A DNA stretch of 28,348 nucleotides from an uncultured Candidatus Saccharibacteria bacterium (GCA_964452925.1 CAYVNL010000065.1:1-28348), one strand, 5' to 3'. Counted from the first letter of the stretch, positions 17,261 to 23,193 are shown. Numbers and translations are program-made. The notes: a model not told the origin generated them from the sequence alone.

Positions 17261-17289
17261 TTGACAATAGACGGTTCTTTGGTTATTAT
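17261..17289 (+). promoter_or_regulatory. Promoter for secE-nusG-rplK and downstream genes
   Basis: TTGACA (17261-17266), 17 nt, TATTAT (17284-17289), immediately after the gyrB stop. Confidence 0.75.
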
Positions 17290-17320
17290 CATCATGAAAG
17301 AATCAGTTAAATATATTTAC

Positions 17321-17518
17321 ATGAATAAAAATAAAGGAAAAAATAAGTTAACAAATTACCTAAAAGAAGTTCGTCAGGAGATAAAAAAGGTAAGTTGGCC
17401 GACAAAGAAAGAGGCGTTTAACTATACAATGATAGTTCTTGGTATTTCTATTACTATAGCAACTATACTGGGAACATTTGATTATGTCTTAATAAACCTT
17501 CTCAAGAATATATACTAA
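17321..17518 (+). CDS. secE: Preprotein translocase SecE (single TM); start revised from the ORF-track TTG at 17261
   Basis: YLKEVRQEIKKVSWPTKKE followed by one TM helix with FD; upstream of nusG. The 17261 TTG is the -35 box. Confidence 0.92.
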   Translation: MNKNKGKNKLTNYLKEVRQEIKKVSWPTKKEAFNYTMIVLGISITIATILGTFDYVLINLLKNIY

Positions 17519-17521
17519 TTT

Positions 17522-18067
17522 ATGTCAAAACAAAAACTTCTACAAGAAAAAAGATGGTATGTTATACATACTTATTCTGGATATGAAGAGGCGGTTGCAA
17601 AAAATTTGAGGCAAAGATCAGAATCTTTAGGAATGGAAGAAAAAATATTTAGTGTTATTGTTCCTAAAGAAAAAAAAATTAAAATTAAAAATGGTAAAAG
17701 AAAAACTGTTGAGGAAAAAATATATCCTGGATATGTTCTTGTTGAAATGATAGTAACAGACGACTCTTGGTATGTTGTAAGAAATACTCCTAACGTTACT
17801 GGTTTTGTTGGCGCTGGAATAACACCCCTTCCACTATCTTTAAAGGAAGTTGAGGTTTTAAAGAAAAGAATGGGAGCTGATGTTGCTAAGTTTAAAATTG
17901 ATGTTAAGGTAGGGGATTCAGTTAAAATAATAGACGGACCTTTTAAAGATTTCGATGGTAGGGTTTCTGAAATTGATTCCGAGAGAGGAAAAATAAAAGT
18001 ATTAGTTAATATGTTTGGTAGAGACACTTCAGTTGAGCTAGACTCACTACAAATTAAAAAAATATAA
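17522..18067 (+). CDS. nusG: Transcription termination/antitermination factor NusG
   Basis: WYVIHTYSGYE; IYPGYVLVEM; VRNTPNVTGFVG; KOW GDSVKIIDGPF; MFGRDTSVEL. Confidence 0.98.
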   Translation: MSKQKLLQEKRWYVIHTYSGYEEAVAKNLRQRSESLGMEEKIFSVIVPKEKKIKIKNGKRKTVEEKIYPGYVLVEMIVTDDSWYVVRNTPNVTGFVGAGITPLPLSLKEVEVLKKRMGADVAKFKIDVKVGDSVKIIDGPFKDFDGRVSEIDSERGKIKVLVNMFGRDTSVELDSLQIKKI

Positions 18068-18071
18068 CATT

Positions 18072-18506
18072 ATGTCAAAACAGATAAAAAATATCTTAAA
18101 AATACAGATAGCTGCAGGTAAAGCAACTCCAGCACCACCGGTTGGGCCATCTTTGGCTCCTCATGGGATCAATATTGGTGAGTTTTGCCAAAGGTTTAAC
18201 GATCTAACCAAAGAAAAAGATGGGTTCACTATTCCTGTTAAAGTTACTATCTTTGAGGATAGGACATATGAATTAGAAATAAAAAACCCTCCAGCTTCAG
18301 AGCTTTTAAAAAAGGCAGCTGGAGTAGATAAGGGGGCAGGTAAACCAAACAAAGATCAAGTTGGTAGAATTACTAGAAATCAATTAAAAGAAGTAACTGA
18401 AAAGAAGATAGCTGATCTAAACACTGACAATATAGAGATGGCAATGAAAATCATAGAAGGAACGGCCAAGAATATGGGTATTAAAATAGAGGATAGTGAA
18501 AAATAA
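18072..18506 (+). CDS. rplK: 50S ribosomal protein L11
   Basis: AGKATPAPPVGP; FCQRFN; IPVKVTIFEDRT; PPASELLKKAAG; IEGTAKNMG. Confidence 0.98.
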   Translation: MSKQIKNILKIQIAAGKATPAPPVGPSLAPHGINIGEFCQRFNDLTKEKDGFTIPVKVTIFEDRTYELEIKNPPASELLKKAAGVDKGAGKPNKDQVGRITRNQLKEVTEKKIADLNTDNIEMAMKIIEGTAKNMGIKIEDSEK

Positions 18507-19014
18507 AAAAAACAGAAATAAAAGAATTTCGTGGGACGACGCCTTCATGGGCTTAGCTTTGATAATTTCAGAAAGAACTTCTTGTAAATTTTATGCAGTA
18601 GGTGTTGTCGCTATAGATAAAAATAAAAGAATAATTTCTCTTGGTTATAATGGATCAAGCGAAGGAGATGATCATTGTATTGATGTTGGGTGCGCTAAGG
18701 TTGATGGAGTGAATGGTGTTTATAAGCGTTGCCGGGGAATTCATGCAGAGATTAATTCAATAATAAATTCTAGTGACACTACTCGTTTAAAGGGTGCAAC
18801 GATATATACCACCCTTTTTCCTTGCTATGACTGCATGAAAGCACTTAACAATGTTGGTATAAGTGAAATTGTTTATATGGAAGAATATCAAAGAATTAAA
18901 ATTGGAGGAAAAGGTAAAGAAGAAGAAACAGAATCAATTGAATTAGCAAGAAAAAGAAAAATTAAAATTAGAAAATATAATTTAAAAGAAATAGAAATTA
19001 ATATTAAAAGATGA
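18496..19014 (+). CDS. dCMP deaminase (ComEB/DCTD family); GTG start overlapping rplK
   Basis: RISWDDAFM; SLGYNG; HAEINSI; TLFPCYDCMK (zinc motifs HAE and PCxxC intact). Confidence 0.88.
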   Translation: MKNKKNRNKRISWDDAFMGLALIISERTSCKFYAVGVVAIDKNKRIISLGYNGSSEGDDHCIDVGCAKVDGVNGVYKRCRGIHAEINSIINSSDTTRLKGATIYTTLFPCYDCMKALNNVGISEIVYMEEYQRIKIGGKGKEEETESIELARKRKIKIRKYNLKEIEINIKR

Positions 19015-19559
19015 TATTAGGAATAAAAAAAATACTTCGTTTAGTTAAAAAAAATAAGTTAGTTGAAGGTTTGTGTAATAGAGAATTGAATAATCCTGAA
19101 GGTTCAGGATTTGATTTAAGATTGGGTGAAGTTTATAAAATTGAAGGAAAAGGTTTTTTGGGCGTTGAAAATAGAAGCACTCCAAAATCTATATTAATCG
19201 CAAGAAACGAACCAGATAAAAAAGAAATAGACAATCATTTCATATTTCAACCTAATAAATATTATTTAATAAAAACAATCGAAAAAGTTAACTTACCATT
19301 AAATGTTTCGGGTATAGTTTTTCCTAGAACAACGCTTTTTAGGTCAGGAATATCATTTTTAAATGGTATAGTTCAGCCAGGATATTCTGGTGAGCTTAGT
19401 TTTGGAGTTATAAACATGAGTAACGAACCATTGAAAATATCTTTTGGTGCACGAGTTGCTCATATAACATTTCATAAAATATCTGGTAGAGGTAGTCATT
19501 ATAGAGGACAATGGCAAGGAGGAAGAGTTACGACAAAAGGATCTGAAAAGCAAGTTTAA
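19011..19559 (+). CDS. Trimeric dUTPase/dCTP-deaminase-fold protein with non-canonical catalytic motifs
   Basis: GFDLRL; PRTTLFRSG; [11 protein letters not shown]; GARVAHITF; YRGQWQGG. Confidence 0.8.
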
Positions 19560-19560
19560 T

Positions 19561-20550
19561 ATGAATAATAAAGAACAACAATATTTAAATATACTAAAAG
19601 ATATATTAGATAATGGCTTTGATAAGGAAATATTCCTAACGCCAGAAGTTAAAAATCAGTACCTGAAAGAAGAAAGAGAAATTCCCTATATTAGATCTGT
19701 TTTTGGTCGCCAAATAAGATTTGATTTATCTGAGGGGTTTCCATTACTAACAACAAAAAAAGTTTTTTTTAGGGGTATACTCCATGAACTTTTATGGTTT
19801 TTAAGTGGTGATTCTAATATAAAATATTTAGTTGATAACGATGTTCATATATGGGATGAATGGGCATGGAAAAGATACCATAAGCATTGTATTTTAAATT
19901 GTCCAGAAAAAGACGTTACACAAAAAGAATTTATATCAAAAATAAAAGAATTACCAGCAAAAGATAGCTTTGTTAAAGAATGGGGAGATCTAATATACTG
20001 TTATGGTCGTATGTGGAGGCGTTGGCCCGCAAGTGATAGTAGGGAAATCGATCAACTATCGTGGGTCATTGAGGGACTTAAAAACAAGCCATTTCGTAAG
20101 TCTTATGTTGTTTCGGGTTGGAATCCAGATTTTATATATTCAATGGCTTCAGAGAAAAACAAAAATGAAATACCACCCTTTTGTCACACATTGTTTCAAT
20201 TTACGGTTACGGACAAGCTTAATCTTGGAATGTATCAAAGAAGCGCAGATATGTTTTTAGGTGTACCATTCAATATAGCAAGCTATTCTCTCCTATTGTT
20301 AATGGTTGCTCAAGTAACAGGACTAGAGCCAGGCGAATTTGTTCATACATTTGGAGATGCTCATATATATTCAGATCACTTAATTCAGGTAAAAGAACAA
20401 CTATCAAGGGATCCCAAAGAATTTCCTGTAATAGAAATTAACAAGGGAATCAAAGACATCGATTTATTTAAGTTTGAAGATTTTAATTTAAAGAACTATA
20501 ATTATCATCCTCAAATAAAGGCCCCAATAACTAATGTAGGTGGATTTTAA
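19561..20550 (+). CDS. thyA: Thymidylate synthase ThyA, divergent
   Basis: [15 protein letters not shown]; ELLWFL; IWDEW; WNP; PFCH; [18 protein letters not shown]; GDAHIY. Confidence 0.93.
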
Positions 20551-21042
20551 ATGAAAATATCAATAATTGCCGCAATGGCTAAAAATAGGGTAATAGGCGT
20601 TGGTAATTCGTTGCCTTGGAATTTAAAAGAAGACATGGATTACTTTAAAAAGATAACTTTAAACAAAACTGTTATAATGGGTCAAAAGACTTTTGAATCT
20701 ATTGGCAAACCATTGCCAAAAAGAAAAAATATTATTCTTACAAAAGAAAAAGATTATAGTCCAGGTGGTTGTTTTACGGCAAAATCAATAGAAGATTCTT
20801 TGAAAACGATTAACCCAGAAGAAGAAGTTATGATTATTGGTGGCGCCTCTGTTTATAAGCAATTTTTACCACTAGCAGACAAAATGTACTTAACAATTAT
20901 AGATAAAGATTTTGATGGAGATGTTTTTTTTCCAGATTTTGACTATAATGAATGGAAAGAGGTTTCAAGGGTTGATAAAGAAAACAAGAACCTTAACTTG
21001 AAGTATAGTTTTATAATTTTAAAAAAAATAAAAATCTGCTGA
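20551..21042 (+). CDS. folA: Dihydrofolate reductase
   Basis: IAAMAKNRVIG..NSLPWNLKEDMDYFK; VIMGQKTFESIGKPLPKR; IIGGASVY; GDVFFP. Confidence 0.97.
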   Translation: MKISIIAAMAKNRVIGVGNSLPWNLKEDMDYFKKITLNKTVIMGQKTFESIGKPLPKRKNIILTKEKDYSPGGCFTAKSIEDSLKTINPEEEVMIIGGASVYKQFLPLADKMYLTIIDKDFDGDVFFPDFDYNEWKEVSRVDKENKNLNLKYSFIILKKIKIC

Positions 21043-21073
21043 AATCATATTTGTATAAAGCAGAAAAAATAAT

Positions 21074-21736
21074 ATGAACAAGATTGCAAAAGTTATAGAT
21101 CACACAGATATTAGGTCAGAAGCTACAATTAAGGATATTAAAAAAAGATGTAATGAAGCTAAAAAATATTCTTTTCATGGGGTTTGTGTTAACCCTAAGT
21201 TTACATCTCTCGTTAGTAGAGAGCTAAAAGGAACCAATGTTAAAACAGTTGTATTAATAGATCCTCCAATGGGTCTTTCAAGTCATAAAGATAGGTTGAT
21301 TGCTTGCAAGAAAGCTAAAAAAGATGGAGCGGATGAGTTAGACATAGTTCTTAACATAATAGATGTAAAGTATGATCGCTATGACAAGGTTTTAAAAGAC
21401 CTAAAACCTTTATGCTCTATACTTCCAACTAAAGTAATTATAGGTTCTGGATTTCTTACAGACGAAGAAATTAAAAAAGTTTCAGTTATTGTTAAAAAAT
21501 CAGGAGCTTTTTGCATTAAAACAGCTACAACAAAAGATCCTTTAGAAAATAGAGAAATGAAAGAAAAAGTATGGCATCTTAAACTAATGAAAGAATATGC
21601 ACCAGGATTAGTAGTTAAGGCTTCTGGTAAGATAAAAACAATAAGTGACATTAAAAGATGCATAAAAGCTGGTGCTGGAATTGTAGGCACTAGTTCTGGG
21701 GTTCAAATTATGAAAGAGATTTTATCTAATAAATGA
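21074..21736 (+). CDS. deoC: Deoxyribose-phosphate aldolase-like class I aldolase, divergent
   Basis: IDHT; VCV; GADELDIV; KVII; IKT; VKASG; GTSSG. Confidence 0.85.
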   Translation: MNKIAKVIDHTDIRSEATIKDIKKRCNEAKKYSFHGVCVNPKFTSLVSRELKGTNVKTVVLIDPPMGLSSHKDRLIACKKAKKDGADELDIVLNIIDVKYDRYDKVLKDLKPLCSILPTKVIIGSGFLTDEEIKKVSVIVKKSGAFCIKTATTKDPLENREMKEKVWHLKLMKEYAPGLVVKASGKIKTISDIKRCIKAGAGIVGTSSGVQIMKEILSNK

Positions 21737-23193
21737 GTAAAACAGTAATAGGCCTAGAAATACATATTGAGTTAAATACAGAATCAAAAATGTTTTGTAG
21801 TTGTTTTAATAGTTCTAAAACAAGTAAGCCAAACGAAAATATATGTGTTGTTTGTCTAGGTTATCCAGGAACTCTTCCTGTGGCTAACAAAAAGGCGATT
21901 GAAAAAACAATAAAAGCGGGCCTTGCTCTTAATTGTAATATTCCTGAAAAATCTTTTTTTTGTAGAAAAAGTTATTTTTATCCAGACCTTCCTAAAGGGT
22001 ATCAAATAACTCAAGACGACAACCCTTTATGTCATAACGGTTTTCTATACTTAAACAAAGAAAAGATTAGAATAAGAAGGATTCATCTAGAAGAAGATGC
22101 TGGAAAGTTAATTCATCCTAAAGATAAAGAATATTCCTTGGTTGATTTTAATAGGGCAGGAGTTCCATTAATGGAGCTAGTAACTGAACCAGATATTAAG
22201 TCAGCTAAAGATGCAAGGGTTTTTGCAGAAGACTTAAGGGCCATAATGAAGTATCTTAATATATCTAATTGTGATATGGAAAAAGGAGAAATGAGAGTTG
22301 ATGCTAACGTATCGATATCCTCTAGTCCAGGCAAAATAGATGGTAATAAAGTTGAAATAAAAAACATTAATTCTTTTAAATCAATAGAAAAAGCTCTTTT
22401 ATATGAAATTAAAAGACAAAAAGAAATAATTGAAAAAAAACAAAAAGTAATAAGAGAGACTAGAGGATGGGATGATAAAAAAGAAATAACCATTCCCCAG
22501 AGAAGCAAGGAAGAAGTAGATGATTATAGGTATTTTCCAGAACCAGATTTACCAGGCATTAACTTAAAAGAAATAAATATTGAAGAAATAAAATCAACCA
22601 TACCTGAACTACCAAAAGAAAGAAAAATTCGCTTCCAAGAAAAATATAATTTAACTGAAAAAGAAATTGATTTTTTTATAACAAACAAAAAGATAGGTGA
22701 TTATTATGAAGAGGTTGTTGATACCATCAATTACTTAACGAAAGAAGGTAGTTCAAAAAAAGAAACAATAGAATGTCCTATAATTTTTAAGCTAACGTCA
22801 AATTACATACTTAATGAATCTCATTATTTTATAAAAAATATAGATGAAAAAGACTTAAAAATAAGACCAAAAAAACTTGCTGAATTTATATTTTTAATAT
22901 ATGAAAAAAAGATATCAACGAATATTGCTAAAAAGGTTATAAAAGATATGATGGTTTCTGGTAGAAATCCATCTGATATAATTAAGGATAAAAATTTTGT
23001 TGAATTAAGCGATGGATCAAAAATAGATCAGATCATAGAATCTGTTGTAAAAAATAATAGTTCAGCAGTAAAAGACTATACTATGGGAAAACAAGAATCC
23101 CTTCAATTTTTAATTGGTCAGGTTATGAAAACTACAAAAGGAAGCGCTAATCCGTTAACAGTTAAAAAAGCTTTAATAGATAAAATAAGTTAA
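21733..23193 (+). CDS. gatB: Asp/Glu-tRNA amidotransferase subunit B
   Basis: IGLEIHIEL; GYPGTLP; YFYPDLPKGYQI; HLEEDAGK; DFNRAGVPLMELVTEPD; GEMRVDANVS; EIKNINS; YRYFPEPDL. Confidence 0.98.
   Translation: MSKTVIGLEIHIELNTESKMFCSCFNSSKTSKPNENICVVCLGYPGTLPVANKKAIEKTIKAGLALNCNIPEKSFFCRKSYFYPDLPKGYQITQDDNPLCHNGFLYLNKEKIRIRRIHLEEDAGKLIHPKDKEYSLVDFNRAGVPLMELVTEPDIKSAKDARVFAEDLRAIMKYLNISNCDMEKGEMRVDANVSISSSPGKIDGNKVEIKNINSFKSIEKALLYEIKRQKEIIEKKQKVIRETRGWDDKKEITIPQRSKEEVDDYRYFPEPDLPGINLKEINIEEIKSTIPELPKERKIRFQEKYNLTEKEIDFFITNKKIGDYYEEVVDTINYLTKEGSSKKETIECPIIFKLTSNYILNESHYFIKNIDEKDLKIRPKKLAEFIFLIYEKKISTNIAKKVIKDMMVSGRNPSDIIKDKNFVELSDGSKIDQIIESVVKNNSSAVKDYTMGKQESLQFLIGQVMKTTKGSANPLTVKKALIDKIS

Follow-up and report, generated by a model that had tools for sequence, protein, structure and literature searches.

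The window analysed here is a 28,348-nt stretch of DNA from an uncultured Candidatus Saccharibacteria bacterium, and constitutes the entire contig C65 of genome G000 (572 kb in 98 contigs, 94.8% complete); close orthologs of its proteins carry the public labels Falkowbacteria, Parcubacteria or Patescibacteria. Between rplK and gatB, it contains five open reading frames (ORFs) for deoxypyrimidine metabolism, spaced, as the original prediction had described, by −4, 1, 0 and 31 nt:

18496–19014, + strand: dCMP deaminase of the ComEB/T4 Cd type, 172 aa, with canonical zinc and catalytic motifs (Pfam dCMP_cyt_deam_1, 72.7 bits)
19011–19559, + strand: Dcd-like (archaeal-type) dUTPase-fold protein, 182 aa (Pfam DCD, 82.5 bits, and dUTPase, 40.6 bits)
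19561–20550, + strand: thymidylate synthase ThyA of the long, L. casei-like form, 329 aa, with catalytic, base-binding and folate-binding residues intact and R179-K180-S181 at 20095–20103
20551–21042, + strand: dihydrofolate reductase (DHFR) of the FolA type, 163 aa, canonical (Pfam DHFR, 201 bits)
21074–21736, + strand: deoxyribose-phosphate aldolase DeoC, class I (DERA), 220 aa (TIGR00126, 149.8 bits versus a cut-off of 117.3)

This locus is very probably a housekeeping thymidylate operon that the Patescibacteria of the order keep between rplK and gatB, and whose variant motifs are uncoupled from one another. The operon is of a known kind and no new pathway is needed. We compared it with 40 relatives of the same order and then with 400 genomes drawn from the phylum. 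The rplK-to-gatB slot holds thymidylate genes, with varying content, in G001, G023, G028, G035, G036, G012 and G037, and the genes for the deaminase, the Dut-like protein, ThyA and DHFR recur as a set in G001, G023, L068 and L070 (Patescibacteria). The position of the dUTPase-fold gene can be taken by an ordinary dUTPase: a canonical five-motif Dut follows the dCMP deaminase in the same slot of G012, and in G037 the Dut is fused to a deaminase domain, while G428 carries canonical Dut, deaminase, a ThyA with the same RKS motif as that of the window, DHFR and SHMT in a row. The G037 fusion (338 aa, L084:2733-3749) lies just 3′ of rplK, and the nearby tmk and deoC appear fragmented, the deoC match containing in-frame stops.

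The identities of the window genes agree with the route that had been proposed for them, from dCMP to dUMP to dTMP with recycling by DHFR and with DeoC alongside. Deaminase and DHFR had been called canonical and all the expected motif residues are present, namely H83-A-E85 and C110/C113 in the deaminase (aligned to 2hvw, 1vq2 and 2w4l), and W23, D28 (equivalent to Asp27), F32 and GG97 in DHFR, whose score for NCBIfam model NF008037 (168) is exactly the cut-off (168).

The second gene encodes a protein that exceeds the Pfam dUTPase cut-off (22 bits) and falls below those of the NCBIfam models NF002598 (72.3 versus 130), NF001862 (36.7 versus 103) and TIGR00576 (33.8 versus 102.55), as well as below that of the Dcd model TIGR02274 (82.3 versus 92.8). 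It has indeed lost its catalytic acid, as noticed originally: Gln122 (codon 19374–19376) replaces the Asp of motif III, which in dUTPases places the attacking water and contacts the 3′-OH and is present in every solved relative (9ln0, 8y1w, 4xjc, 9w59 and 2yzj). The catalytic Glu of Dcd (Glu138 in E. coli) is likewise replaced, by Gly132, and Gly occupies this position in 81 of 114 family representatives; H151 stands in place of the motif-IV Gln. The phosphate, sugar and lid motifs are kept, with R106, T108, R111, Y125 and R148 conserved in at least 80% of the 114 representatives and the C-terminal lid, Y-x-G-x-W-Q-G-G-R, conserved across the family. Residues specific to the subfamily are E30 (codon 19098–19100), at the place of the Gln in the canonical 'QP..DL' motif, R55, T57, P58 and W168. 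We refer to this product and its relatives as the Asp-less protein and family.

The family comprises 289 cluster representatives at E ≤ 1e-10 and 2,669 clusters at 90% identity, spans bacteria of the Candidate Phyla Radiation (CPR), archaea and phages, and is publicly labelled either 'hypothetical protein' (NCBI) or 'dCTP deaminase' (JGI); in the literature, we found no paper describing it or this operon in CPR. Close orthologs nearly all have Gln122 (115 of 119), and across the family the position varies (A23, S22, D20, N14 and H13, also P or Q), as does the motif-IV Gln. The subfamily residues follow the loss of the acid: members lacking Asp122 have E30 in 88 of 91 cases, T57 in 80 of 91 and W168 in 81 of 91, against 12, 7 and 8, respectively, of the 20 members that retain Asp122, which are more canonical at these positions (for E30, Fisher p = 3e-5, ignoring relatedness). 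Three other origins or roles were considered and rejected. Homology to T4 gp56, a dCTPase/dUTPase, fails because gp56 belongs to Pfam dUTPase_2 and reaches an hhalign probability of 0.2% against the family profile; membership of a defence system, because PADLOC gave no match for the window protein, distant family members or neighbours; and a phage origin, because the best phage matches are less than 30% identical, though one family member lies on a phage-like contig.

The AF2 model of the Asp-less protein (pLDDT 97) has archaeal dUTPases and bifunctional DCD-DUT enzymes as its best Foldseek matches (TM 0.78–0.92). The protein is predicted to form a homotrimer, with a score of 0.93 versus 0.00 for the best control; 20 of 30 solved homo-pairs also attain this mark, against 1 of 23 single chains, and the score may owe something to a resemblance to solved trimers. 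In the trimer model, E30 and G31 lie on the interface face together with motifs II and IV, and R55, T57 and P58 lie on the opposite face with motif III and residues 130–132.

Canonical Dut occurs in 176 of the 401 genomes of the phylum sample, and its distribution is uneven: 2 of the 32 genomes bearing the Asp-less variant have it, versus 174 of the 369 others (p about 3e-6, ignoring relatedness). Across lineages, the Asp-less gene has a thymidylate synthase of some kind next to it, be it ThyA, a long ThyX (in G028, G035, G036, G087, G104 and G156) or an archaeal ThyA-like protein. The ThyX genes in question are double-length, at about 520–550 aa, give weak Pfam Thy1 matches (L016:6447-8087, L014:4551-6152, L015:2390-4000, L087:7154-8722 and L089:5590-7245) and often adjoin or overlap the variant. 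On an archaeal contig (L034:1-5552, with Rpb5/Rpb2 nearby), a class II ribonucleotide reductase (RNR), thioredoxin and a 379-aa sub-threshold ThyA match precede an Asp-less member with Ser at position 122.

Fusions and degenerate copies also occur around the variant. A 524-aa dCMP deaminase-ThyA fusion (P0362, L068:3580-5154) has DHFR 5′ and the Asp-less variant 3′ of it. Another operon, with the variant and an RKS-type ThyA, encodes a 362-aa thymidylate kinase-dUTPase-fold fusion (L070:7573-8661) whose dUTPase domain, as read from its sequence, lacks the motif-I Asp, the motif-II Arg-Ser, the motif-III Asp and motif V; this Tmk-fused Dut is itself degenerate and was not usable as an instance of canonical Dut in a variant-bearing operon. 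The order contains, moreover, a third Dcd subtype (L079, L080 and L081, in G039, G018 and G034), which has Glu for the motif-III Asp (T-P-L-E-P-E-W) and keeps the deaminase Glu.

The nucleotide supply of G000 bears on what the Asp-less protein might do. The only RNR detected in this genome is the class III enzyme NrdD, and none of class I or II was found; nrdD is split over two contig ends (C5:8950-9897 and C68:2-796), with a short third NRDD match on C48. Class III RNR yields dNTPs, so G000 can make its own, which bears on the scavenging role that had been attributed to the operon; on the same proposal, in which scavenged nucleotides also supply carbon, bears the fact that no pyrimidine-nucleoside phosphorylase was found. 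Nor did we find in G000 a second dUTPase-fold gene, MazG, a dimeric dUTPase, Nudix or NDK.

The reading that we favour, with confidence evenly balanced, is that the Asp-less protein is an active dUTP/dCTP diphosphatase with a rewired active site; its activity, substrate and catalytic residues are all inferred. Class III NrdD would deliver dCTP and dUTP as triphosphates, from which the Dcd-like protein, as a homotrimer, would strip pyrophosphate, acting on dUTP, dCTP or both and yielding dUMP and dCMP. The deaminase would then convert dCMP to dUMP, ThyA would methylate dUMP to dTMP with DHFR recycling the dihydrofolate, and Tmk, encoded elsewhere in the genome, would carry dTMP onward; DeoC is a near-universal neighbour gene of the order, outside any co-adapted unit. 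The dUTPase-fold protein cannot rely on the textbook water activated by Asp; we suppose that the residues for catalysis or for holding the water have moved elsewhere on the subunit interface, with E30 and possibly R55/T57 as candidates. We favour hydrolysis because the protein fills the Dut slot of the operon, which in G012, G037 and G428 holds Dut; because canonical Dut is rare in variant-bearing genomes; because it is the only candidate among the tested pyrophosphatase families in a genome whose sole detected RNR is of class III; and because the gene adjoins a thymidylate synthase across lineages.

Several observations weigh against such an activity. Human dUTPase with the equivalent Asp changed to Asn has no detectable activity and still binds dUTP (PMC4827122), and free variation at position 122 and at the motif-IV Gln is typical of a site that is no longer catalytic. 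E30 might do no more than hold two subunits together by a salt bridge. In G087 and G156 the variant has a canonical Dut as its direct neighbour, so that the two are not simply redundant, and the same Dcd subtype occurs in genomes with and without the variant, for which reason we also rejected the idea that a special monofunctional Dcd accompanies it. Some distant family members are found in arrays of Dcd-fold paralogs rather than in thymidylate operons, or on phage-like contigs. Finally, the co-occurrence statistics ignore relatedness, and the 94.8% completeness of G000 limits what its gene content can say.

The Dcd-fold arrays (L027:229-2016, L028:765-4379 and also L029-L032) comprise three to five tandem paralogs, with Asp-less members that are 42–45% identical. 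One array includes a two-domain DCD_N/DCD_C protein and adjoins NDK, another lies near HicB, and none has PADLOC matches; they may represent hetero-oligomers or an undescribed nucleotide system.

Appreciably less probable, and still to be taken seriously, is that the protein is a pseudoenzyme, a trimer that would bind dUTP, dCTP or dTTP without hydrolysis and would serve thymidylate synthesis as a sensor, buffer or regulator in an otherwise ordinary operon. The pattern of losses is in keeping with it, since the two known catalytic acids are gone, as is the motif-IV Gln, while the phosphate-binding, sugar-stacking and lid motifs remain, and so are the human Asp-to-Asn mutant, the variability of position 122, the tandem arrangement with Dut in two genomes and the close linkage to three kinds of thymidylate synthase. 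Against this reading, there is no conserved partner, the neighbour being ThyA or ThyX, deaminase or Dcd. The strong anti-correlation with canonical Dut, whose operon slot the variant occupies, its retention in a genome of 572 kb where no further dUTP/dCTP pyrophosphatase was detected, and the new invariant residues at the interface that forms the active site in homologues likewise speak against it.

It is rather improbable that the protein catalyses some other reaction on deoxypyrimidine nucleotides, such as a dCTP-specific release of pyrophosphate feeding only the adjacent deaminase, a deamination through E30 or cleavage at another phosphate bond. The remodelled interface residues and the coexistence with canonical Dut in one family, suggesting a non-identical role, would suit such a reaction, and in ThyA-type operons the gene adjoins and overlaps that of dCMP deaminase; but operons of the ThyX/Dcd type that contain the Asp-less gene have no deaminase, the fold offers no known precedent for catalysis without either acid, and base specificity has no handle from sequence alone.

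A broader version of the diphosphatase reading extends it to a functional family with members in CPR, DPANN-like archaea and some phages. In this family, the carboxylate needed for catalysis would have moved over the subunit interface, from motif III (where Asp has become Gln, Ala, Ser or another residue) to the N-terminal 'QP' motif (Gln to E30). We consider it unlikely as a whole, although, if true, it would describe a dUMP-supplying diphosphatase with a mechanism unseen in characterised members of the dUTPase superfamily, perhaps taking dCTP besides dUTP, and would explain why most variant-bearing genomes have no recognisable Dut.

ThyA scores above the NCBIfam equivalog cut-offs (TIGR03284, 349.9 bits; NF002496, 341.9 bits). 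The predicted loss or shift of its phosphate-binding arginines was confirmed by an ungapped alignment of R179-K180-S181 to S-R126-R127 of other ThyAs: of the four arginines, Arg166 is kept, Arg126′ becomes Lys and Arg127′ becomes Ser, and a new Arg appears one residue earlier. The Arg21 position is Arg in the window and variable across the clade (E62, R17, V15, Q12, K7), which also has an N-terminal insertion with an invariant K22 and an extra Phe before the catalytic Cys. In the same clade the RKSY motif is invariant in two alignments (120/120 and 119/119 orthologs). Residues C208, R227, N238, H268 and Y270 are intact in the window protein, and the catalytic Cys, Arg166, Ser167, Asp169, Asn177, His207, Tyr209, Glu58, Trp80/83 and Tyr94 are present and invariant in 119 orthologs. 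Since RKSY and all the catalytic, uracil-specificity and folate residues are invariant, the changes reflect constraint, not drift.

Four invariant arginines are not an absolute feature of active ThyA, because the Vibrio parahaemolyticus enzyme, in which Arg127′ is naturally absent (Gly141′), is active on dUMP (Km 27 uM; PMC6005164); replacement-set mutagenesis cited in the same work found the Arg127′ position permissive. The CPR clade retains Arg166 and has a Lys at 126′ and a new Arg beside it, which Lys22 or Arg45 may assist. The Asn at the specificity position and, as evidence from context only, the DHFR gene, which abuts thyA with a 0-nt gap in the window and lies 3′ of thyA also in G001, G428, G193 and G422, argue for the textbook conversion of dUMP to dTMP, and ThyA is probably an ordinary enzyme. 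A dCMP-methylase route was rejected, the base-specificity position being Asn in 119/119 orthologs.

ThyA is diverse beyond this clade. Canonical ThyAs, a type without Arg21 and an R-T type are also present in the order, and in the phylum there are dyads that read AKN, AHN or KKH, without an Asp-less partner. Among the divergent types of the phylum, one lacks Arg21 and has S-W-D and C-H-C-F-F-K-F motifs, one has L-R-T-H at the dyad and others have A-K-N or A-H-N; their loci are L041-L044 (G008, G024, G040 and G013), L046 and L047 (G006 and G004), L118, L121, L126 and L127. Thymidylate synthase was not found in the same-family relatives G003 and G007, where the dCMP deaminase matches (C4:33343-33747 and C28:31586-31984, respectively) contain one in-frame TAA each, which may represent gene decay.

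DeoC keeps its catalytic residues (Schiff-base K149, K182, K120 and D90), and the alignment bears out the claim that its phosphate-loop motifs are altered: KVIIGSG, KTATTKD and SGKIK stand where KVIIET, KTSTG and SGGIR are usual, so that two Gly of the phosphate loops are replaced (T153 and K186), and GTSSG is kept. DERA binds phosphate mainly through backbone amides. DeoC was found in 34 of 41 genomes of the order, whether these have ThyA, ThyX or no detected thymidylate synthase, and nearly all share the loop variants of the window protein. The DeoC variant is thus an order-wide subtype, unrelated to the other four genes, and the enzyme is probably an ordinary one.

These data weigh heavily against the central claim of the original prediction, that parallel changes at phosphate sites mark a co-evolved unit: the variant motifs do not co-occur, which is one of the outcomes that the prediction itself had named as refuting it. 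RK(S/H)-type ThyA is present with the Asp-less protein in nine sampled genomes and in at least 10 where the latter was not found at E ≤ 1e-25; in this second group, one genome has the ThyA gene next to a canonical Dut and two have it next to a canonical Dcd (G193 and G422 combine canonical Dcd with RKS-ThyA and DHFR). None of these claims depends on the unpublished genome G192, which was part of a 58-genome tally. Order-wide DeoC motifs, RK-type ThyA with canonical Dut or Dcd, and Asp-less protein with ThyX together indicate that the variants are uncoupled. That the five genes would form one co-evolved unit, changed in parallel at its phosphate sites to suit a substrate with a modified base or in another phosphorylation state, or to allow channelling in a complex, is therefore highly improbable, even though three proteins of one operon deviate at residues usually held invariant, the four genes from deaminase to DHFR recur together and deaminase-ThyA fusions exist; besides the uncoupling, ThyA keeps the uracil-specific Asn238 (Asn177 in E. 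coli) and all folate and hydride-transfer residues and adjoins DHFR, and the other CPR ThyAs have their different dyads with no Asp-less partner. The simple alternative that had been offered, lineage change with normal chemistry, fits ThyA and DeoC, where each unusual motif is a conserved trait of its lineage, inherited independently of the other, in an enzyme that is probably normal, and does not yet explain the dUTPase-fold protein.

The five genes belong to a longer co-directional block, in the order secE, nusG, rplK, deaminase gene, Dcd/dUTPase-fold gene, thyA, folA, deoC and gatB, whose remaining features are:

17261–17289, + strand: best sigma-70-like promoter match (TTGACA-17-TATTAT, 11/12 positions), 3′ of the gyrB stop and 5′ of secE, a pattern match only
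17321–18506, + strand: secE, nusG and rplK, the upstream part of the block (Pfam matches)
21733–23193, + strand: gatB, which overlaps deoC by 4 nt and closes the block, with a convergent miaA next

Pfam identified SecE (64 bits), NusG (99 bits; gene at 17522–18067) and both the N and C domains of L11 (rplK at 18072–18506), and also confirmed GatB. The end of rplK overlaps the GTG start of the deaminase gene by 11 nt. The secE start is uncertain (about 17321–17518): the longest ORF begins at a TTG that is part of the −35 hexamer of the best promoter-like match (window 17261–17330), and the true start is probably the ATG near 17321; the protein read from this ATG matches Pfam SecE. A second promoter-like site (10/12) lies inside thyA (20474–20502), and no terminator-like site was found on the + strand between 15000 and 24500, in agreement with the original prediction. 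Because the total of promoter-like matches in the region is at chance level, not above that of shuffled sequence, the promoter and terminator patterns provide no evidence of function.

Many Patescibacteria appear to be without dUTPase, which raises the question of how they come by dUMP and exclude uracil from their DNA. The Asp-less family, which lacks a residue that textbook dUTPases need in order to work, either catalyses in a new way within a very well-studied fold or is a widespread pseudoenzyme that binds nucleotides. Its genes should not be named dCTP deaminase. What is new here is a branch of the dUTPase superfamily without a characterised member and a strongly remodelled, probably ordinary ThyA, both in an ordinary operon.

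The closest known counterparts of the Asp-less protein are the archaeal Dcd-like dUTPases, for which we compared P. furiosus P45 (9ln0/9ln3), T. pacificus 8y1w, S. tokodaii 2zdc/2yzj, M. jannaschii Dut Q58502 and the HAMAP 'probable dUTPase' 9w59. The window protein resembles them in fold and length class (TM 0.78–0.92), in having no Dcd Glu and in its predicted homotrimer, and shares with them the lid Y-x-G-x-(Y/W)-Q, the phosphate motif R-S/T-S/T-x-x-R and the sugar-stacking P-G-Y. All of them, however, keep the motif-III Asp and the Gln in 'QP..DL'; in the window protein these two are Gln122 and Glu30, and the motif-IV Gln has given way to His. The bifunctional DCD-DUT enzymes, B. halodurans 4xjc (the best Foldseek match, TM 0.78/0.84), M. 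tuberculosis 2qlp/2qxx and M. jannaschii 1ogh/1pkh, belong to the same superfamily, form dUMP and can coexist with a separate Dut; yet they need a Glu for deamination as well as an Asp, and the window protein has neither. Phage T4 combines in gp56, Cd, Td and Frd the same four activities as proposed here (dCTP/dUTP diphosphatase, deaminase, thymidylate synthase and DHFR), but the fold of gp56, all-alpha dUTPase_2, is unrelated to that of the window protein, and the window genes lie on a chromosome, where they are passed on in a conserved slot.

With respect to the remaining enzymes, class I DERA (T. maritima 3r12 and E. coli 1jcl) has the Schiff-base Lys, the second Lys, the Asp and the GTSSG loop in common with the window DeoC, which differs in a Gly-to-Thr change in the K-T-S-T-G loop and a Gly-to-Lys change in the S-G-G-I-R loop (Lys/Asn in the order). 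For ThyA, the parallel is with the enzymes of Vibrio, Aeromonas and Pasteurella (VAAP), which have lost one of the four phosphate arginines (Arg127′ to Gly) and still convert dUMP, with a raised Km (PMC6005164). The CPR clade changes more, with Lys at 126′, Ser at 127′, a shifted Arg, an unfixed Arg21, a Lys-bearing insertion and an extra Phe, making it a second and more extreme natural exception to the rule of four invariant arginines that could inform work on substrate binding.

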